Shown here: piece after piece, positions 8,235 through 58,408 of the stretch
Numbering within the stretch: the stretch's first letter is position 1
How the letters are laid out: the number at the start of each line of letters is the position of its first letter
Assembly (NCBI GenBank): GCA_964627095.1
Contig: CAZVKH010000001.1
Location: 8,451 to 72,450, forward strand
DNA from: an uncultured Candidatus Saccharibacteria bacterium
GTDB taxonomy: Bacteria; Patescibacteriota; Saccharimonadia; Saccharimonadales; JAUPVS01
Length of the DNA stretch: 64,000 nt
Direction: 5' to 3'
The notes under the pieces: model-generated
The model's database searches: none
What the model saw: the letters and a program-made list of their open reading frames with translations, nothing else
Told to the model about the DNA's origin: nothing
Program-made: the position numbers and the translations under genes

Positions 8235-8723
8235 ATGATTTATATACAACACACATTCAAGATGTTTATGGGCAAAGTTTCGGCCTCTATTGTGGTGTTT
8301 TTGTTTGTTGCTGGGATGGTTCTTACGCCGGCTTCTGCTTTGGCAGCCACTCCCGACTATAGTTGCGGGGCTTACGGTGGCAACGACTATAACAGTAACT
8401 GTCCAACCGACCCTAGTACCCCTAGCTCAAGTAGCAGTTCCTCTAGCAGCTCGACTGGCAGTAGTTCTAGCGACGGAGCGGCGGCCGACACGCCGACAAC
8501 TTCGGATACTACAACTACAACCGACGACAGCACCGCTATCGATACAAACGACAAAAGTTCTTCTACCACCAAGACAGCTGCCGAAGAAGAAGCTGGTACG
8601 TCTAATAGCAGCCGCTGGCTTTTGTTCGGCTTCTCGCTCTTTCTGCTCCTGCTAGCTCTATGGCTGATCTTCTTCTTGCTCAAGCGCCGCAAGCGCCAGC
8701 AAGAAGACAAACCAATGTTCTAG
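8235..8723 (+). CDS. Secreted Ser/Thr-rich low-complexity surface protein with C-terminal TM anchor and basic tail
   Basis: Signal peptide (…VVFLFVAGMVLTPASALA), poly-Ser/Thr linker, C-terminal hydrophobic segment plus KRRKRQQ (cell-surface anchoring architecture without LPXTG). Confidence 0.5.
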   Translation: MIYIQHTFKMFMGKVSASIVVFLFVAGMVLTPASALAATPDYSCGAYGGNDYNSNCPTDPSTPSSSSSSSSSSTGSSSSDGAAADTPTTSDTTTTTDDSTAIDTNDKSSSTTKTAAEEEAGTSNSSRWLLFGFSLFLLLLALWLIFFLLKRRKRQQEDKPMF

Positions 8724-8992
8724 ACGGTCGGCTGGCCGGACGTGAGCTGAGGCTGTTCAACGATTCTATCTATGCCTAGGTCCGGCATCATGTACGATAG
8801 TTCGTCTCGTGCAGTCGGTGGTAGATCTGGGCTAACTTGGGCCACAACCGCTAGGCCATCGTCGCTACGGTCGACGACAACTCTTACAGCACTAGATATA
8901 GCAGGCATTAGATCCCAAAGATCACACTCAGCTGTAACACGGGCTTGCTGGAAGGCCTCATACTCTTGATTAGTGATTCTTCGTTTTGACAT
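8720..8992 (-). CDS. Hypothetical protein (90 aa), leaderless, downstream of a TCATGCTTGCA-type promoter
   Basis: ATG at 8992. -10 TAAGAT and -35 TTGCAT lie directly upstream. No known domain recognised. Confidence 0.4.
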   Translation of the reverse strand: MSKRRITNQEYEAFQQARVTAECDLWDLMPAISSAVRVVVDRSDDGLAVVAQVSPDLPPTARDELSYMMPDLGIDRIVEQPQLTSGQPTV

Positions 8993-9023
8993 ACCAAAAA
9001 TCTTACAGCTACTCTGTTAGATA

Positions 9024-9035
9024 TGCAAGCATGAG
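9024..9035 (-). promoter_or_regulatory. Extended -35 motif CTCATGCTTGCA (minus strand) of the promoter for the 8720..8992 gene
   Basis: A 12-mer shared with 9541..9552 and 51888..51899. -35 TTGCAT, 17 nt, -10 TAAGAT, then 7 nt to the ATG. Confidence 0.5.
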
Positions 9036-9061
9036 CGAAATATGTTTTAAGATGTCTGGGC

Positions 9062-9508
9062 TTAGTCGAGTGCTCGGGCTTGCTGGATCTGTTGCATGAG
9101 GTGACATTTGTCGCCTCCCTCCTCAAAAATTTCACACGCCACCGGGCGCTCTTCGTAAATTCCGCAGTGCTCCCAGCCGTCTTGATCGGTTTCAAGATAC
9201 TTGCAGTCATTCAGCAATACGTACCGACCAAGATTTGCCGCCAATGGTTCGGTTGGTCGCTCAGGGTCAACATAGTAAGTTTTCATACCTGTTTCGGGGT
9301 CCCATTCAAGACCACGCGGATAGGGTGCATCCGGGCGAGCCTTTGGCGATGGCAAGGGAACCGTCAGAAACTTGTTACCCGGTCGAGTCATAAGGGCGAC
9401 TTCTTGAAATGTCAGATCGAATATTTCGTTAGCCCGGCAGCAAGCCGCTTGACACTCATTGCAGTCGTCAACTGGTTCAGATGAAATTTGGATTGGAATT
9501 CTGGACAT
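9062..9508 (-). CDS. YkgJ/UPF0153-family putative Fe-S/zinc-chelating protein (CxxCxxCC)
   Basis: 148 aa, N-terminal CNECQAACC motif plus further Cys residues. Leaderless start behind a TCATGCTTGCA promoter. Confidence 0.55.
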   Translation of the reverse strand: MSRIPIQISSEPVDDCNECQAACCRANEIFDLTFQEVALMTRPGNKFLTVPLPSPKARPDAPYPRGLEWDPETGMKTYYVDPERPTEPLAANLGRYVLLNDCKYLETDQDGWEHCGIYEERPVACEIFEEGGDKCHLMQQIQQARALD

Positions 9509-9540
9509 ATTCTACGATTATTGAGCCATCTACGGTCGTT

Positions 9541-9552
9541 TGCAAGCATGAG
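9541..9552 (-). promoter_or_regulatory. Extended -35 motif CTCATGCTTGCA of the promoter for the 9062..9508 gene
   Basis: -35 TTGCAA, 17 nt, -10 AATAAT, then 8 nt to the ATG at 9508. Confidence 0.5.
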
Positions 9553-9572
9553 AGAATTGGAAGCGACTGCCT

Positions 9573-9690
9573 GGCGGCACATTTCGTCGCGGGCTCGGTG
9601 CCAGCACCTGCGCGCGCTCCTCATGAGCGCACCTTCGACTACTGTCTGCTGCGCAGCCAAGTCGAAGAACCGGCGTCTTGCTCACTGGCA
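9573..9690. other. tRNA-adjacent conserved structured element, copy C (divergent; candidate ncRNA/cis element)
   Basis: Shares GGC-GCACAT…GCTCGG-[hairpin]-CCTGCGC…TTCGA with copies A and B. The hairpin arms GGTGC/GCACC covary with GGAAT/ATTCC. It lies between the terminator of tRNA-Pro and the promoter of the YkgJ-like gene. Confidence 0.4.
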
Positions 9691-19271: not shown

Positions 19272-20303
19272 TTATAGCAAGATTTCTTGTTCTTCAGGAG
19301 TGTCCGGAGTTTTACCTAGGTGCTTATAGGCCTTGCGTGTAACCTTGCGGCCGCGCGGAGTACGCTCCAGTAGCCCAATCTGCATAAGATAAGGTTCGTA
19401 AAAGTCTTCGATAGTAGAACGCTCCTCGGCTGTAAGGGCAGCTAATGTTTCGACACCAACTGGGCCACCTTGATAGTTGTCGATTATCGCCATTAAAAGC
19501 ATGCGGTCGGCTGGGTCAAGCCCCAGATCATCAACTTCTAACAGCCCCAGAGCTTGGGTACTAATTTCGGCGTCGATGATGCCGTCGCCATTAATGTCGG
19601 CGTAGTCACGTACTCGCTTTAGTAAACGATTGGCGATGCGCGGCGTAAGCCGAGCGCGTTTGGCTAGATCTTGGGCGGCGGCCTTATCAATCTTTATGCC
19701 AATGATCTTGGCGGCCCGTTCAATAATCTGCTGGACTTCGTCTGGAGTGTAGAACTCTAAGCGGTGTATCATGCCAAAACGATCACGTAGGGGAGCGGCC
19801 AAGGCACCAGTTCGGGTGGTGGCGCCAATAATTGTAAACTTGGGCAAATCTAAGCGCAGGCTGCGGGCGGTTGGGCCCTTACCAAGCATGATGTCGAGTT
19901 TGAAGTCTTCCATGGCACTGTAAAGAACCTCTTCGACCGAACGGTTCAAGCGGTGGATTTCGTCGATGAACAGAATATCGCCGTCCTGCAGGTTGGTTAG
20001 TAGGCTAGCCAAATCACCGGCCCGCTCCACAGCCGGGCCACTGGTGACGCGAATGTTGGCTCCCATTTCGTTGGCAATAACAGTTGCCATGGTCGTTTTG
20101 CCCAGGCCTGGTGGACCGTACAACAGAATATGGTCGAGCGGCTCTCCACGTTTGGTGGCGGCCGCAATCGCCAATTGCAAATTCTGTTTTAAACGCTTCT
20201 GCCCAATATAGTTGGTGAAGTCATGGGGGCGGAGTGTAATCTCTAACTCGGCCTCAATTGGGTCTTCTTCATCCTTGGTACTTACAATTCGTTCAATCGC
20301 CAT
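19272..20303 (-). CDS. ruvB: Holliday junction branch migration ATPase RuvB
   Basis: Walker [10 protein letters not shown], Walker B DEIHRL, 343 aa. Confidence 0.95.
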
Positions 20304-33725: not shown

Positions 33726-34207
33726 GTCTGACTCCCCTTTTGCATTGTTACCTTTACCATGGCATGGCGAATAACCGAGTCATTCAAGCAATAACCCGAC
33801 TGTAGCTCTTCGCTAACCACCTCTACCGCACCCTCGCCCAAACCATCGCCTTCGTCCATACTGACGGCTTCGTGAACGGTTGGGTCAAAGACTTCACCAA
33901 CCGTTTTAATGCGCTGTACACCCATTTGCTGTAAGGTGGACTCGAACTGCTTAACAACACCTTGGACGCCTTGTACGTAGCTGTTGTCGGCCAATTCAGC
34001 GGGCACATGCTTAAGGGCTCGTTCAAAGTTATCAATTACCGGCAATAAATCTTCGATGACCTGCACCTTAATATGGTTTTGCAAGTTAGCGACTTGGTCA
34101 CCATGCTGGCGGCGAACATTAATTACGTCGGCGCGTTCGCGCTGCAGGGCTTCGGTTAGTTCGGCAATCTGCTGTTGTAACTCAGCAACGGTTGGTTTTT
34201 TAGGCAT
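33722..34207 (-). CDS. grpE: Nucleotide exchange factor GrpE
   Basis: 161 aa, GrpE C-terminal beta-domain pattern. Confidence 0.9.
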   Translation of the reverse strand: MPKKPTVAELQQQIAELTEALQRERADVINVRRQHGDQVANLQNHIKVQVIEDLLPVIDNFERALKHVPAELADNSYVQGVQGVVKQFESTLQQMGVQRIKTVGEVFDPTVHEAVSMDEGDGLGEGAVEVVSEELQSGYCLNDSVIRHAMVKVTMQKGSQT

Positions 34208-34904
34208 ACAGCATCTCCTCTAAGGTGTTACCAGCGTGTTCCACCAAGCGCATAACGTCACGATATTGCTGGCGGGTAGGTCCCAGTACGCCAATATAGC
34301 TATGGTCGCTATACGGACTCCGGAACTTACTAATGATCAACGAGCAACGCGCACTGCGTCCAATTGGGTTTTCGCTACCAATATAGACGTTAAGCGGCTG
34401 GTTGGGGGCGGCTTCTTTCAGCCACGGCTCCAGGTTGTCCAGCAGCCTCGCAACTTGCTGGACCTGTTGACCATTAATAAACTCCGGCTGACCAAATAAG
34501 TTCGACAAACCACTCATGTATAACTGATCACCAATCGTGGCTATCCCCAAGTTATGAGTTAGCTCAACTAGGGTGTCAACAGTGTTACGAATCGCTCGTT
34601 CCGGTAGGCCGCTGCTAGTAGCTCGGGTTTCCAGGGCTTTAGAGGCTCGTTCGGGTGTTTTGTCGGGGTTGTCGTTGGCCAGAGCGTTTACGTAAACGCG
34701 GTAACCTTTGTCGGTCGGTACACGGCCGGCACTGGTGTGGGGCTGTGAAATGTAGCCCATGCGCTCTAGTTCGGCCATTTCGGCGCGGATAGTGGCCGAA
34801 GAAACACCAAAAACTTTGGCCATTAAACTAGAACCTACCGGACTGGCAACCTCGGCATACTGTTCCACAATAGCGGCTAGTATTTTCTGCTGTCGTTCTG
34901 TCAT
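34200..34904 (-). CDS. hrcA: Heat-inducible transcription repressor HrcA
   Basis: MTERQQKILAAIVEQYAEVASPVGSSLMAKVFGVSSATIRAEMAELERMGY…, 234 aa. Confidence 0.9.
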   Translation of the reverse strand: MTERQQKILAAIVEQYAEVASPVGSSLMAKVFGVSSATIRAEMAELERMGYISQPHTSAGRVPTDKGYRVYVNALANDNPDKTPERASKALETRATSSGLPERAIRNTVDTLVELTHNLGIATIGDQLYMSGLSNLFGQPEFINGQQVQQVARLLDNLEPWLKEAAPNQPLNVYIGSENPIGRSARCSLIISKFRSPYSDHSYIGVLGPTRQQYRDVMRLVEHAGNTLEEMLYA

Positions 34905-34925
34905 ACCTACAGATATGATAGAAAA

Positions 34926-34952
34926 TTAGCACTCACAAGTCAAGAGTGCTAA
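34926..34952. promoter_or_regulatory. CIRCE operator (TTAGCACTC-N9-GAGTGCTAA) overlapping the hrcA promoter (-35 TTGACT / -10 TATCAT)
   Basis: Perfect 9-bp inverted repeat with a 9-nt spacer, 22 nt upstream of the hrcA ATG. It overlaps the cmk stop codon. Confidence 0.9.
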
Positions 34953-49128: not shown

Positions 49129-49188
49129 GTTTATTCCTTTTTACTGCCCTACCTTAGCATTCTTAGCGCTTACGTTTTGTGATTTGAA

Positions 49189-49398
49189 TCACAGTTCGGG
49201 CTCGGGCGTATCCTTCCTATGCAGTATCAAGTAGAGTATTGGCAATAAGCCGGCGGTATTTAGAACTAGCATACACATGAACCAGCCAGTTTGATAACGC
49301 CGGGCTGACCGCCACAGACCGATTCCTTTCCATACGACATCCCAAAGTGCCACTGCAACTATTACCATTGCCCAGCCTAGCGATAATGAATTGTCCAT
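49189..49398 (-). CDS. Small two-TM membrane protein
   Basis: 69 aa, hydrophobic. Confidence 0.35.
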   Translation of the reverse strand: MDNSLSLGWAMVIVAVALWDVVWKGIGLWRSARRYQTGWFMCMLVLNTAGLLPILYLILHRKDTPEPEL

Positions 49399-50278: not shown

Positions 50279-50360
50279 AATGGCCGTCCTCCTGCTTACA
50301 GTAAAGCAGTTGCCAAGCACCGTTACAGTGACACTAGTCAGTTGTTGCGTGTGATACCAA

Positions 50361-51005
50361 TCACAGCTTGAGTTTTTGCTCGATGGCCGGCAAATCTGTC
50401 ACGATAATTGCCTGGCTATTCACCTCTACCAAGTTAAGGTCTTTGGCTTTGTGCAATTCTCGGCTGACGGTTTCGCGTGATAAACCAGTGCGCGCCGCCA
50501 GGTCACCTTCTTTAAGTGGTAATTGGTAGGTGCTAGTTTTGACTTTTAGGCCAAGCCGATGGCACTCAATAACCAGCTCGTACAGCAAGCGCGTTTGGGC
50601 GCTGCCCGACATCAACTGAACTAGACGCCCCAGTAGACCATCGGTGCCTTGATATAAACGCGCCAGTAGGTCGTACATAACATCCGGGTTGTCCTTTACA
50701 AACTTAACTGCAGCCGTGGCCGGGACAATATGTAGTTCGGTGTCTATTTCGGTTTTAAAGAAATACTTGTTGGGTGTTTTGTTTATAGCCCAAGACATTG
50801 GGAAAAAAGCTGGAGGTTTAAAAACATTAACAATTACTTCTTCGCCGCGGTAAGAAACATCGTACTGGCGAACCCGGCCTTTGGTGACATAAAAAATATG
50901 CTCCGGCTCTTCACCGGCAAACACCAAAATCTGGCCTTTTGGGTAGGTGCGTTGCGGGTAGGTTCTAAAAAACTGGTCAATTTTACTGGAAACTGCGGAA
51001 GTCAT
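50361..51005 (-). CDS. Crp/Fnr-family transcriptional regulator
   Basis: cNMP-binding domain plus C-terminal HTH (RETVSRELHKAKDLNLVE). Confidence 0.8.
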   Translation of the reverse strand: MTSAVSSKIDQFFRTYPQRTYPKGQILVFAGEEPEHIFYVTKGRVRQYDVSYRGEEVIVNVFKPPAFFPMSWAINKTPNKYFFKTEIDTELHIVPATAAVKFVKDNPDVMYDLLARLYQGTDGLLGRLVQLMSGSAQTRLLYELVIECHRLGLKVKTSTYQLPLKEGDLAARTGLSRETVSRELHKAKDLNLVEVNSQAIIVTDLPAIEQKLKL

Positions 51006-51038: not shown

Positions 51039-51854
51039 TTAGGCTGTCTGGCAATCAGGAGTGGCTGTTGCCAACCAGGCAGCTAATGACGTATTAAACG
51101 CTTCTTGCTTGATAGCCTTAGTATCTTCGCTGTAATTATCGAAGTCTGTTGGCTGTACTATGGCAAAAGCACGATTAATATACGCCGACCGGTCTGCAAG
51201 ATAACGCTTAACCGGAACATACTCGTCAGACCTCTCCATGAGAGCCACCACGTGGCCGCCGACTACGTCAGCAACAAGCCAGCGAAGCCCCAGCTCACAG
51301 TCGGTTGCCGTGTCGTTAACAACATGCTCGGAAGCCCGTATCGCTGTTCTTAGGTAGCCGACCCGCTCAACTGTGTTGAAGATTCTCCCCAATTTAGTGT
51401 GGTCATCAAAGACCACTTCTTCGGCGGCCTCAAAGATTAAGTCGGCCAAATGAGGCTGTTGTTGGGCGACATCTTCTATAATCTTGCGCAAATGGCCACG
51501 CTCTTGCGCCTCGTCTTGGATTGTTTTGTTGCTGTAAGTAATATCCCCAACAATCACTTCGGCCCAGTCATGGATAATGGCAGCAGCTTCTAGTACCTGC
51601 TCTTCGTGTGGCGTCATTAGCCCAGGCTGATCGCGACGCAAATTACGGTTCATAGCCCGGGCAATTCCTCGCGTCAGCGGCATGTGCAAAAGGTTGTTAA
51701 CGTCTGCGCCAAGTAGCTCTTGCCAACGTTCGTTAGTTACCCCTTCGGGCATGTAACGTTCGTAACGAACACGGGTCGCCAGCTCCTGTCCAAGATCAGT
51801 GGCGGCAAAGGCGTTGTGGATGTCCATGATGTTGGGTTGAATTTCGGTGCTCAT
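51039..51854 (-). CDS. Hypothetical HD-domain-like phosphohydrolase, leaderless
   Basis: ATG at 51854 (MSTEIQPN…). …AAIIHDWAEVIVGDI… HD-like motif. TCATGCTTGCA promoter upstream. Confidence 0.45.
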   Translation of the reverse strand: MSTEIQPNIMDIHNAFAATDLGQELATRVRYERYMPEGVTNERWQELLGADVNNLLHMPLTRGIARAMNRNLRRDQPGLMTPHEEQVLEAAAIIHDWAEVIVGDITYSNKTIQDEAQERGHLRKIIEDVAQQQPHLADLIFEAAEEVVFDDHTKLGRIFNTVERVGYLRTAIRASEHVVNDTATDCELGLRWLVADVVGGHVVALMERSDEYVPVKRYLADRSAYINRAFAIVQPTDFDNYSEDTKAIKQEAFNTSLAAWLATATPDCQTA

Positions 51855-51887
51855 ACTACTTTCATAGTCCTGCTTGGCTATTAATAT

Positions 51888-51899
51888 TGCAAGCATGAG
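51888..51899 (-). promoter_or_regulatory. Extended -35 motif CTCATGCTTGCA for the 51039..51854 gene (overlaps the ATG of the divergent thioredoxin gene)
   Basis: -35 TTGCAA, 17 nt, -10 GACTAT, then 9 nt to the ATG. Confidence 0.45.
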
Positions 51900-52407
51900 C
51901 ATAATAGTTTTAGGCTATACTTATAGGGTGAATAAAAAACTTTTGTTGGCCATTGCCGTAATAATCGTCGTCATAGGTGCTGGTGTTATTTACTTGCTAA
52001 CCAGTAGTGAGCCAGAAAAAGCCATGGAAACAGTTACTGATCAGTCGACAACCACGTCTACTAGCCCGACCACGCCCCCTCCAGTTACTGACAATTCAAA
52101 ACCCGGCGCCTACATTGACTACACCAGCTCGGCAATTTCTCAGACTTCGGGCACAAAACTACTGTTCTTTCATGCGCCGTGGTGCCCCCAATGTCGCGAT
52201 CTCGAAGACAGCATTAAGCAGGATGGCGTGCCAGACAGTGTGACAATTATTAAGGTCGACTACGACAGCAACCAGGCCCTCCGCCAAAAGTATGGCGTAA
52301 CCCTACAGACGACCGTGGTTAAAATTGATGATAACGGTAACTTGATAGATAAGTTTGTCGCCTATCAAGAGCCTAGCCTGGCGGCTGTAAAGCAACGACT
52401 GTTGTAA
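51895..52407 (+). CDS. Membrane-anchored thioredoxin-like protein (TlpA/ResA-like)
   Basis: WCPQC active site. N-terminal TM anchor. The ORF-track start at 51874 is TTG. ATG at 51895 preferred. Confidence 0.6.
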   Translation: MSIIVLGYTYRVNKKLLLAIAVIIVVIGAGVIYLLTSSEPEKAMETVTDQSTTTSTSPTTPPPVTDNSKPGAYIDYTSSAISQTSGTKLLFFHAPWCPQCRDLEDSIKQDGVPDSVTIIKVDYDSNQALRQKYGVTLQTTVVKIDDNGNLIDKFVAYQEPSLAAVKQRLL

Positions 52408-54024: not shown

Positions 54025-54726
54025 ATGACCGATATGCTCGCTCCTTCAGCCGAAGCCGAAAAATTGCCAACAGATGACCCGACAACCATACTAGCACTTG
54101 AAGCACGCGACTTATTACTCGCCGCCAGCCAAGCCGAACCGGGCAGCCCGGATGAGGTAGCCGCCCTAGAGGAAGCCAATAGTCGCTTTAGCGAGCTGGT
54201 TAGCGAAACCCAGGAATTCCTTACCAAATTTGCTCTGAGCCGCCCCCACCCCAGGCATTTTGATGTGCAAGAAGTAGTCCAGGAAACCTACGCCCGAGCC
54301 TATAAGGGTTTACATAATTTTAGGGGTGACGCCAAGTTTTCTACGTGGCTATTTTACGTTTTGCGCAGCTGTACTGATAACTACTGGAGACGCGAGGCAC
54401 GTCACAACAATCAGCCCCTACCCGAAGAAGACGGTTCAGATCCATCCTTGGTTGGTAGTATTGCCGTGGTGTCATCATTAGATACTGGCGAGGTCGACAG
54501 CTTTTTGGACTACAGTAGCCTTTCGCCGGAACTAGAAGCAATGCTGGCCACTTTAAGTCCCAAGCAACAACAAGCTATTCGTATGCATGACGTAATGGGA
54601 CAAACCACTAAAGAATGTGCCGCGCAACTAGGTGTTAGTGAAATTAGTTTTAAGATGAACGTACACCGGGCTCGCCATAACCTACGCCGCGAATTCCCCG
54701 ATGCCAGAAACTGGTTAGAAGAATAA
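54025..54726 (+). CDS. ECF-type RNA polymerase sigma factor with ~55-aa N-terminal extension
   Basis: Sigma70 region 2 (…YARAYKGLHNFRGDAKFSTWLFYVLRSCTDNYWRR) and region 4 (…QQQAIRMHDVMGQTTKECAAQLGVSEISFKMNVHRARHNLRREF). Confidence 0.8.
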   Translation: MTDMLAPSAEAEKLPTDDPTTILALEARDLLLAASQAEPGSPDEVAALEEANSRFSELVSETQEFLTKFALSRPHPRHFDVQEVVQETYARAYKGLHNFRGDAKFSTWLFYVLRSCTDNYWRREARHNNQPLPEEDGSDPSLVGSIAVVSSLDTGEVDSFLDYSSLSPELEAMLATLSPKQQQAIRMHDVMGQTTKECAAQLGVSEISFKMNVHRARHNLRREFPDARNWLEE

Positions 54727-55034: not shown

Positions 55035-55111
55035 GGCGGCGTAGCTCAGTTGGTTAGAGCACAGGACTCATAAGCCTGGGGTCACAAGTTCAAATCTTGT
55101 CGCCGCTACCA
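55035..55111 (+). tRNA. Elongator tRNA-Met (anticodon CAT)
   Basis: Closely resembles E. coli elongator tRNA-Met (…GTTGGTTAGAGCAC…CTCATAA…GGGGTCACAAGTTCAAATC…). CCA encoded. One A:G mismatch at 31:39. Confidence 0.75.
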
Positions 55112-57211: not shown

Positions 57212-57287
57212 GGGGGTGTAGCTCATCGGTCAGAGCAGGCGGCTCATAACCGCTTGGTAGATGGTTCAACTCCATCCACCCCCACCA
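57212..57287 (+). tRNA. tRNA-Ile2 (anticodon CAT, lysidine-modified type)
   Basis: Anticodon arm GGCGG-CTCATAA-CCGCT-TGGTA closely matches E. coli tRNA-Ile2 (GGCGA-CTCATAA-TCGCT-TGGTC). tilS is present in the window. Confidence 0.7.
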
Positions 57288-57291
57288 AATA

Positions 57292-57326
57292 TCATGCTTG
57301 AGCTTACACCGTTTAACCTCTATACT
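57292..57326 (+). promoter_or_regulatory. Promoter TCATGCTTGAGC-17-TATACT for the 57359 gene (fourth instance of the TCATGCTTG motif)
   Basis: -35 TTGAGC with the upstream TCATGC extension, -10 TATACT. Shine-Dalgarno GAGAGGG before the ATG. Confidence 0.45.
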
Positions 57327-57358: not shown

Positions 57359-58408
57359 ATGGCTAGACTACCAGTTCCGGGCGGCGATACGGGTACATGG
57401 GGCACTGTACTCAATGACTTCTTAGGGGTAGCACATAATAGCGACGGCACGCTGAAGTCAATCACTTCGGCTACCGTGTCAGATTTTTCCGAAGCAGCCA
57501 TCGACGCTGCCGGTAGCGCCATGACAGCAGGTCCGGGCGTTTCTGTAACTGTCGACGATAACGCCAACACCATCACTGTTGGTAACGTCCGAACTACTAA
57601 TGTGCAAACTGCCAGCTACACACTGGCCTTAACCGATGCATTTAAGACCGTCCAGTTTGATGCTGCCGGTAATGTTTTCCCTACTCTTACCATCCCGACC
57701 AACGACGTTATACCATTTGCAATTGGAACGGTAGTTTATGTCACTCACTTAGCTACCGCCCGCTATACCACTGTAGCCGCTTCTGGAGGTGTTACACTGC
57801 AAGCTCCTAGCGGTCTTTCGGTTGGGCCAAAGCAAACCCTAACTCTGCAAAAAACCGCCAGCGATACCTGGATTGTTACCAGCGCCATCAGTGCCAGTGA
57901 CCCAGGCGTACTTCACGAAGTTGGCGCCTTGCCACCGGGTTACTCGCATCTTGGTACAGTTTCAACACTTAGCCTAAATGGTCAGATTTGGGTTCCTTTC
58001 GAAATCCAGTCGCCAATGGCGATGCCGGCAATAGTCATAAGGGTCACCACTGCCGTACCCGGATCACAGTTTAACCTGAGTATCTATCAGTGTGATACTT
58101 CTTGGACGGCTGCCTCATTTATTGGCACCATAATCAACCAGACGGCTGTTACCGGACTAAATACTATTACCCCACCGGCCACTACACTGCCACCAGGGCG
58201 TTATAGTATAAAGCTACGTTATTCTGACCTTTCGGCTATCGATATCCGAGCCATTAACTGTGCTCCGCCTTTCGTGGATCCCAGCATTGGTGCCACCGCT
58301 GGTGTCCAAAAACTAACCGGCTCATCTGGTAGTAACGACTGGACCGCTGCCACCTTAGCGACCGGAGGCTTTCAGCTCCCTTTCTTCTTCAGCCAACGGG
58401 CTCTGTAG
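57359..58408 (+). CDS. Thr/Gly/Ala-rich hypothetical protein, phage minor-tail/tail-fibre-like N-terminus
   Basis: MARLPVPGGDTGTWGTVLNDFLGVAHNSDGTLK… No signal peptide. Beta-rich repeats. Confidence 0.45.
   Translation: MARLPVPGGDTGTWGTVLNDFLGVAHNSDGTLKSITSATVSDFSEAAIDAAGSAMTAGPGVSVTVDDNANTITVGNVRTTNVQTASYTLALTDAFKTVQFDAAGNVFPTLTIPTNDVIPFAIGTVVYVTHLATARYTTVAASGGVTLQAPSGLSVGPKQTLTLQKTASDTWIVTSAISASDPGVLHEVGALPPGYSHLGTVSTLSLNGQIWVPFEIQSPMAMPAIVIRVTTAVPGSQFNLSIYQCDTSWTAASFIGTIINQTAVTGLNTITPPATTLPPGRYSIKLRYSDLSAIDIRAINCAPPFVDPSIGATAGVQKLTGSSGSNDWTAATLATGGFQLPFFFSQRAL

Follow-up and report, generated by a model that had tools for sequence, protein, structure and literature searches.

A conserved 12-nucleotide word at the -35 position of predicted promoters in a Saccharibacteria subclade suggests a dedicated transcription control system

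A stretch of 64,000 nucleotides from an uncultured Candidatus Saccharibacteria bacterium (contig CAZVKH010000001.1, positions 8,451 to 72,450, hereafter the window) contains a 12-mer, TGCAAGCATGAG on the plus strand and CTCATGCTTGCA on the minus strand, in exactly three copies, each located about 45 nucleotides (nt) 5' of a start codon and on the strand of the gene. The copies, all exact in sequence and lying where a first-pass annotation of the window had placed them, span positions 9024-9035, 9541-9552 and 51888-51899. The finding of this conserved word at the -35 position of predicted promoters, both in this genome and in distant relatives, suggests that a dedicated transcription control system operates on the genes downstream. 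The word is very probably a promoter element, and represents a promoter with an extended -35 or an activator site, not a new category of sequence.

On the gene strand, the full unit is GCTCATGCTTGC, formed by an 8-nt block, GCTCATGC, followed by TTGC. A -35 hexamer preceded by a fixed 6-nt extension had been described earlier; the hexamer stands, while the extension is the 8-nt block, beyond which the T of TTG and the C following TTG are also invariant, giving the 12-nt unit. The ATG begins 44-46 nt from the first base of GCTCATGCTTGC at all three copies. At site 1, upstream of a small hypothetical protein, the motif is GCTCATGCTTGCA (9024..9036, minus strand), in which the block covers 9036..9029 and the -35 hexamer, TTGCAT, covers 9028..9023; after a spacer of 17 nt comes a -10 hexamer, TAAGAT (9000..9005, minus), with 7 nt left between its end and the ATG at 8992. 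At site 2, upstream of a YkgJ-like protein, the motif is tCTCATGCTTGCA (9541..9553, minus), where a T replaces the first G; here the -35 is TTGCAA (9545..9540) and the -10, AATAAT (9517..9522, minus), is again 17 nt away and separated by 8 nt from the ATG at 9508. At site 3, upstream of an HD-domain protein, GCTCATGCTTGCA is found at 51888..51900 (minus), with TTGCAA at 51892..51887 and, after 17 nt, GACTAT (51864..51869, minus), which ends 9 nt before the ATG at 51854. The 7-9 nt distances between -10 and ATG, as well as the 17-nt spacing, agree with the first-pass description, and the layout of group 1 sigma-70 promoters (TTGnnn, 17 +/- 1 nt, a -10 hexamer whose second and sixth bases are A and T) is observed at these three sites and at a fourth one, discussed below.

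The recurrence of the word had been taken as significant in itself, on the basis of a chance expectation of about 0.01 for a 12-mer occurring three times in 64 kb. This estimate proved wrong: 60 sequences of 64 kb, generated under a dinucleotide model, contain on average 1.4 such 12-mers, with at least one in 77% of the simulations, and the window itself includes a second 12-mer, ACTTCTTCGATA, likewise present three times, inside genes. All three copies of the motif are intergenic, although greedily selected open reading frames (ORFs) cover about 95% of the window, and the significance of the motif comes from its placement, its orientation and its conservation in other genomes, not from its copy number. 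A fifth copy of the 9-mer TCATGCTTG, found within ruvB at 19883-19891 (minus strand), probably occurs there by chance. Another recurrent sequence, the palindromic 14-16-mer ACTTAACATGTTAAGT, was discarded: its triple count was an artefact of palindrome counting, and it is present at two sites only, both genic.

Related sequences were collected by a metagenome scan seeded with the HD-family alignment, which yielded 60 loci, and by a scan of a genome collection with the YkgJ-like protein, which yielded one relative, a metagenome-assembled genome named 'Patescibacteria group bacterium'. The window and the related contigs (individual loci are designated by L numbers) were combined in a non-redundant pool of 565 kb, where 11 sequences match GCTCATGCTTGC without mismatches, against 0.07 expected. 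At one mismatch the observed and expected numbers are 10 and 2.4, at two mismatches 51 and 40; GCTCATGCTTGC is therefore a tight word and not a fuzzy consensus. For nine of the 11 exact copies, the distance between the beginning of the motif and that of an ORF is 42-47 nt; the other two precede a longer leader. A pattern scan of viral contigs, which produced single matches at chance level, served as a negative control: an ORF start at the same distance was found for 9 of 120 such matches (Fisher p = 1e-7 versus the motif copies). When GCTCATGC is not followed by TTG, it occurs 17 times, as compared to 17 expected, i.e. at background, and the functional unit is therefore the composite 12-mer.

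The motif is conserved across a subclade of Saccharibacteria and is not confined to the source genome. In locus L003, which encodes a YkgJ-like protein 86% identical to that of the window, both neighboring motifs are kept exactly: positions 1077-1089 are identical to the site 1 motif, and the counterpart of site 2, at 120-131, reads GCTCATGCTTGC. The site 1 promoter shows 2 changes in about 60 nt between the two genomes, while the 90-residue protein encoded downstream is only about 60% identical, as judged by eye. Similarly, the site 3 motif is kept exactly in L005/L006, where the HD protein is 77% identical, with 3 changes in the spacer and 2 in the stretch between -10 and ATG. In L010, a 13.5-kb contig with no synteny to the window and an HD protein 54% identical, GCTCATGCTTG is found four times and GCTCCTGCTTGCA once within 6 kb, all on the gene strand and directly 5' of the starts of genes encoding the HD homologue, a YfbR-like HD_3 protein, a DUF3048 protein and two small unknown proteins. 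Motif genes cluster, as sites 1 and 2 do in the window, the five sites do in L010, and pairs of sites do in L012 and L015. In L076, a motif promoter again precedes an operon whose second gene encodes a YkgJ-like homologue, 43% identical.

An alignment of the regions upstream of the HD gene in 12 lineages, which share 40-77% protein identity and no synteny, gives TTTT-GCT(C/T)ATG(C/G)TTGC, where G..TG.TTG and the A at -11 are invariant. In a matrix built on 16 sites, information is high at positions 1-12, the first eleven of which are fixed by construction by the 11-mer seed used for collecting the sites; past position 12, strong conservation is seen only at positions 33 (A in 12 of the 16) and 37 (T in 11 of the 16). 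These two positions correspond to a -10 with A at -11 and T at -7, exactly 17 nt after TTGCnn.

The motif marks a minority class of promoters. It was not found upstream of housekeeping genes (EF-Tu, S10, tRNAs, hrcA, chaperones), and the window contains eight tRNAs as well as, by visual inspection, typical housekeeping genes. In the same genomes, promoters without the motif include TTGACA/TTGACT promoters (hrcA, tRNA-Lys), TTGCAA promoters devoid of the block (several in L010 and one upstream of a YkgJ-like gene in L075), and a -10-only or extended -10 design, CATG(G/A)TATA(A/T)T. By eye, the -10 boxes of motif promoters match TATAAT at about 4 of 6 positions, versus 5.4 of 6 in leaderless promoters without the motif. 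The extended -10 design, observed at about 29100 (plus), 62490 (minus), 55000 (plus, before the tRNA-Met at 55035) and 8210 (plus), consists of TGnTATAAT, preferentially preceded by CA and lacking a recognisable -35. Upstream of hrcA (34200-34904), a TTGACT-17-TATCAT promoter is overlapped by a CIRCE-like inverted repeat, TAGCACTC-N9-GAGTGCTAA, at 34905-34948 (minus).

The earlier suggestion that the motif drives leaderless mRNAs agrees with the layout of sites 1-3, which is however not specific to the motif. Among 76 genes of the window, 25 are preceded by a Shine-Dalgarno-like motif and 22 by TAnnnT 5-10 nt before the start, with a single gene showing both; ftsH, tilS, murJ and others share the same leaderless geometry without carrying the motif. 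The leaderless layout is therefore a genome-wide trait and not a property of the motif. At most motif sites of the relatives the gap between -10 and start is 5-10 nt, while the L003 counterpart of site 2 and site 4 of the window are leadered.

The genes behind the motif are those originally indicated, although the Pfam support for two of them is borderline. Site 1 precedes a 90-residue hypothetical protein (8720..8992, minus), whose mRNA is predicted to be leaderless. Site 2 precedes a 148-residue YkgJ-like protein with a CxxCxxCC Cys cluster (9062..9508, minus), a borderline PF03692 match at 22.6 bits versus a cut-off of 23. Site 3 precedes a 271-residue HD-domain protein (51039..51854, minus; HD_3, 19.1 versus 22.5), which is the conserved core gene tied to the motif. 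The start codons of the two small genes are backed by L003 orthologues with the same start, and Met-1 of the HD protein is invariant in 34 homologues. Homologues of the HD protein bear the names Candidatus Saccharimonadales or Saccharibacteria. Most motif genes encode small proteins with no Pfam match. Searches of the motif-driven small proteins and of their neighbors against Pfam and NCBIfam detected no DNA-binding domain and thus no candidate for an autoregulated regulator.

The sequences show the motif as a word locked in position and orientation, together with its geometry, enrichment and deep conservation; the start sites, the sigma factor involved and the existence and sign of action of a regulatory factor are tentative predictions. 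The word, GCTCATGCTTGC(A), would be the upstream half of a class of housekeeping (sigma-70/SigA-type) promoters present in a Saccharibacteria subclade, with TTGCnn acting as the -35 and a weak -10, xAxxxT, located 17 nt later. Transcription would start at the ATG or within about 3 nt of it, producing leaderless mRNAs, as predicted for many genes of this genome. In sigma-70 promoters transcription begins about 7 nt 3' of the -10, and the start codons of the motif genes lie at this expected position. The block GCTCATGC, at about -43 to -36, adjoins the -35 and may serve as the docking site of a sequence-specific factor, which would sit against RNA polymerase, either at region 4 of sigma or at the alpha subunit's C-terminal domain. 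Such a factor would more likely be an activator offsetting the weak -10 than a repressor, and its targets would form a small and conserved group of genes outside the housekeeping functions, namely those for the HD-domain hydrolase, for the YkgJ-like protein and for small lineage-specific proteins.

This reading as a whole, in which promoters of sigma-70 type form a class combining a weak -10 with an 8-nt block read by a dedicated factor, has about even odds. A more specific form, put forward only tentatively, is that a so far undescribed factor associated with RNA polymerase, either a monomeric activator or an adaptor of sigma region 4 or of the alpha C-terminal domain, reads GCTCATGC and switches on a conserved accessory gene set (HD hydrolase, YkgJ-like proteins, many lineage-specific small proteins), which might be tied to nucleotide salvage or to an episymbiotic lifestyle. 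Several observations weigh against the reading as a whole. No candidate for the reader emerged from the window or the related loci, and the block shows no palindrome or repeat structure, which is unusual for the sites of classical dimeric regulators. Only about 14 of the sites are independent, and their collection was seeded as described above. The -35/-10 assignment and the leaderless status are themselves predictions from sequence. In L075 the promoter of the YkgJ-like homologue, 58% identical, is the TTGCAA promoter without block mentioned above, although a neighboring gene carries GCTCAAGCTTGC, and in other clades of Saccharibacteria the HD gene has a palindromic operator instead, so that the putative regulon is not universal.

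RNA polymerase itself could also be the reader of the block. In this case, region 4 of the housekeeping sigma, perhaps together with the alpha C-terminal domain, would recognise the whole 12-mer as an optimal, extended -35, and the motif would mark strong, constitutive promoters which depend on the -35 to compensate for poor -10 boxes and involve no regulator. This alternative is rather unlikely but is to be taken seriously. It is in keeping with the fact that the block is never found apart from TTG above background, with the fixed 17-nt spacing, with -10 boxes weaker than those of -10-only promoters lacking the motif and with the absence of the dyad or repeat expected of a regulator site. A T-rich tract is often located just upstream, as in UP elements, although it is a loose one, and GCTCATGC itself contains GC, at variance with a UP element. 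On the other hand, 12 positions are nearly invariant across genes and lineages, whereas -35 elements are normally degenerate and the known contacts of sigma region 4 span about 6-7 base pairs (bp); moreover, housekeeping and tRNA genes of the same genomes lack the motif, and many TTGCAA promoters lack the block. The possibility of a chance recurrence, of a compositional artefact, or of the footprint of a small repeat or mobile element is effectively refuted. It could appeal to the simulated frequency of triple 12-mers, to the copy within ruvB and to the fortuitous appearance of site 4; yet placement, orientation and distance from start codons depart widely from randomness, orthologous promoters as well as unrelated contexts of distant lineages conserve the word, and, when 140 nt around the sites were aligned, the flanks did not align and similarity was confined to the 12-13-mer, with all copies in promoter position, as not expected for a dispersed repeat.

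The regulators encoded in the window offer two further explanations. As noted in the first-pass annotation, these include an extracytoplasmic function (ECF) sigma factor (54025-54726) and a Crp/Fnr-type regulator (50361-51005); a HxlR-type regulator is also encoded. It had been suggested that the motif is either the site of a dedicated factor or the -35 of an alternative sigma, defining a small regulon. The identification as a promoter element holds, and its strict conservation argues for a dedicated reader; the second option, in which the 12-mer would be the -35 of the ECF sigma, or of a sigma encoded elsewhere, and would define its regulon, is improbable. A tight, asymmetric -35 word at a fixed spacing is typical of alternative sigma regulons, and the targets are non-housekeeping and clustered. 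The idea fits poorly, though, because of the A(-11)/T(-7) signature of housekeeping type found at 17 nt and because the ECF gene, a generic family member preceded by a TGgTAGAGT extended -10, has no motif upstream and hence no sign of autoregulation. Apart from A2 and T6, a signature of group 1-type recognition, the downstream element is poorly conserved, whereas the -10 of alternative and ECF sigmas is usually as tight as the -35 and of another kind, such as the CGT type; for ECF sigmas the -35 is often GAAC-like, and their genes are usually autoregulated. Spacing and distance between -10 and ATG also do not differ from those of ordinary promoters in the window.

The Crp-like regulator is very improbable as the reader of the motif, in spite of the position of its gene (50361..51005, minus), which lies 33 nt 3' of the HD gene both in the window and in L005 and is probably co-transcribed with it from site 3. 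Such an autoregulated Crp regulon would agree with the overlap between motif and -35, the classical position for class II activators. The regulator however carries the recognition helix RETVSR, as in CRP, and two perfect 16-bp boxes of the type TGTGA-N6-TCACA, TGTGATTGGTATCACA and TGTGATTCAAATCACA, flank its gene region at 50350-50365 and 49178-49193; dyad symmetry, be it of this type or of the TTGAT-N4-ATCAA type, is absent from the 12-mer, and the motif-rich loci L010, L007 and L008 have no Crp gene nearby. The two boxes lie in intergenic gaps of one string of genes, where they overlap the stop codons of the Crp-like gene and of a DUF5652 gene, respectively, both upstream of the next genes in the string, and are likely the operators of the Crp-like regulator.

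Other interpretations of the motif were discarded. A coding role of the ATG contained in it can be dismissed, as this codon opens a 7-codon ORF at site 1 and is out of frame at site 2. Likenesses to sigma-54 and sigma-32 (-35 CTTGAA) promoters, to cre and to MotA boxes were ruled out by eye on spacing or key bases; for sigma-54, whose promoters have GG at -24 and GC at -12 (TGGCAC-N5-TTGCW), TTGCA is present, but no GG is found 10 nt upstream at any site. A Rfam search on the window, and around site 2, detected tRNAs only.

A fourth site, at 57292..57326 (plus), had been reported as a variant of the motif serving a tail-fibre-like gene. The variant, TCATGCTTGAGC (57292-57303), is indeed present in the 17-nt geometry, with TTGAGC followed by TATACT, but its membership in the class is doubtful: it shows 3 mismatches to the 12-mer and, in the orthologous locus L072, 88% identical, the sequence is TCACGCTTGAGC, with -35 and -10 kept and the extension not conserved. 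Site 4 is probably an ordinary promoter and not a member of the class. It begins 5 nt after a tRNA-Met (57212-57287), and a leader of 32 nt, containing GAGAGGG, separates it from the ATG at 57359. In L072 (2900-2930, compared with 57260-57287 of the window) just the 3' part of the tRNA-Met, ending in CATCCACCCCCACCA, is found before the promoter, while the sequence further upstream differs; this partial copy may be a tRNA-fragment scar left by an integration event. The 349-residue tail-fibre-like protein (57359-58408) has a first segment of about 35 residues, beginning with MARLPVPGGDTGTWG, to which many Saccharibacteria proteins (P0091-P0156) are 76-85% identical at their N-termini; these proteins carry PF19264, PF26209, beta-helix, pectate-lyase-3 or tail-collar domains. 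The MARLPVPGGDTGTWG region looks like a common N-terminal module mounted on variable surface or fibre proteins.

Additional features were noted around the other sites. On the strand opposite to site 3, and overlapping it, TCCTGCTTGGCT (51868..51879, plus) likely provides the -35, TTGGCT, of a promoter for the divergent thioredoxin/DsbD operon; its counterpart in L005, TTGACT, is nearer to the -35 consensus. An inverted partner of the motif at site 3, TGCTTG-N13-CAAGCA, was considered as a second half-site, an interpretation rejected in favor of a -35 function, since the partner is missing at the other sites and drifts toward TTGACT in L005. The operon most likely starts at a GTG located 6 nt after a TATACT box (51916-51930, plus), and its start would then be a leaderless GUG; gene callers picked other starts, e.g. 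the ATG inside the motif at 51895. At site 2, a gene indel distinguishes the window (9509-9522) from L003 (150-607), in which an additional 137-residue gene, with a Shine-Dalgarno AAGGAG, precedes the YkgJ-like gene. The window lacks this gene and the site 2 promoter abuts the ykgJ-like ATG, so that a leadered unit appears turned into a leaderless one. Between a tRNA-Pro terminator and site 2, a GC-rich stretch (window 9560-9672, minus; L003 1-115) has about 65% GC, versus 48% for the genome, and is 96% identical between window and L003, above the adjacent promoter spacer; it has no Rfam match, its fold z-score is only -0.4, and it may represent an RNA, a small ORF or what is left of a gene.

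The palindromic operator found in other clades, a near-perfect (T)CCAGGGGTATAAAGTACCCTGG(A), lies about 60-90 nt 5' of the HD homologue in L017-L021, L023-L025, L036 and L056, with a variant in L032-L034. These loci lack GCTCATGCTTGC at that location and have a leader with a Shine-Dalgarno sequence, which suggests that a different regulator acts there on the same HD gene. Two contigs from IMG/VR, L156 (position 8744) and L086 (position 10278), contain the exact 12-mer in full promoter geometry, with GACAAT or TAATAT at the 17-nt spacing and the ATG 43 nt from the start of the motif; they may derive from Saccharibacteria phages or prophages using the promoter word of the host.

Transcriptional regulation is barely known in Saccharibacteria and in the other ultra-small Patescibacteria, which have very few regulators and whose genetics is only now becoming tractable; a full-text literature search on promoter or leaderless motifs of Saccharibacteria, and on the string CATGCTTGCA, returned nothing relevant. 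A 12-nt promoter word, nearly invariant across lineages of 40-55% protein identity, offers a ready handle. It predicts which genes, mostly annotated as hypothetical, are co-controlled, and it may be used as a bait for the protein reading it and as a portable promoter module for genetic tools. Leaderless expression, as predicted here, would be the default architecture in the source genome. If the block is read by a dedicated factor, the motif would represent the first case in the candidate phyla radiation in which the cis-regulatory code of a regulon is defined; should RNA polymerase read it unaided, this lineage would have a -35 specificity of unusual length.

The motif may be compared with several known systems. 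TTGnnn, the 17-nt spacer and the A2/T6 -10 are shared with canonical sigma-70/SigA promoters (TTGACA, 17 nt, TATAAT) of leaderless mRNAs, as found in Actinobacteria and Deinococcus; as in leaderless sigma-70 genes, the -10 of motif promoters ends 6-10 nt before the ATG, with no Shine-Dalgarno sequence. The differences are the TTGC-type -35, the invariant GCTCATGC preceding it and the resulting twelve contiguous, nearly fixed positions. Middle promoters of phage T4 have, in place of the -35, a MotA box, (a/t)(a/t)TGCTT(t/c)A, centred at -30 and about 12 bp from the -10. They share with the motif the TGCTT core in the -35 region, the retention of a sigma-70 -10 and the idea that a factor redirects sigma region 4; the TGCTTG of the motif, unlike the MotA box, ends 20 nt before the -10. 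The likeness is probably coincidental, and we know of no MotA or AsiA homologues here.

Parallels are also found among activators. The sites of class II activators, such as CRP/FNR at -41.5 and the marboxes of MarA/SoxS, touch or overlap the -35, as the motif does at about -43 to -31, and likewise accompany weak core elements; CRP/FNR sites are however dyads of 14-22 bp, of which the motif shows no trace and which the CRP-type boxes of the window represent elsewhere, while marboxes are about 20 bp long and degenerate. In Bacillus subtilis, Spx and the alpha C-terminal domain act at an AGCA located at -45 to -42 of SigA promoters, where G-44 and C-43 are essential (PMC2801614). Both elements are short, asymmetric, GC-containing and locked in position directly 5' of the -35 of a housekeeping sigma. 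The GC at about -44/-43, critical for Spx, has a parallel in the invariant GC of the motif at about -43/-42 (TGCT at about -44 to -41), while the rest of the sequence differs, GCTCATGC being longer as compared to AGCA plus an A-tract. No gene of the ArsC/Spx family was noticed by eye among the proteins of the window; the presence of a thioredoxin operon as the divergent neighbor of site 3 is a further point of resemblance. Without any claim of membership, the Spx/alpha C-terminal domain system may be regarded as the nearest analogue of the motif, the likeness being one of mechanism only.

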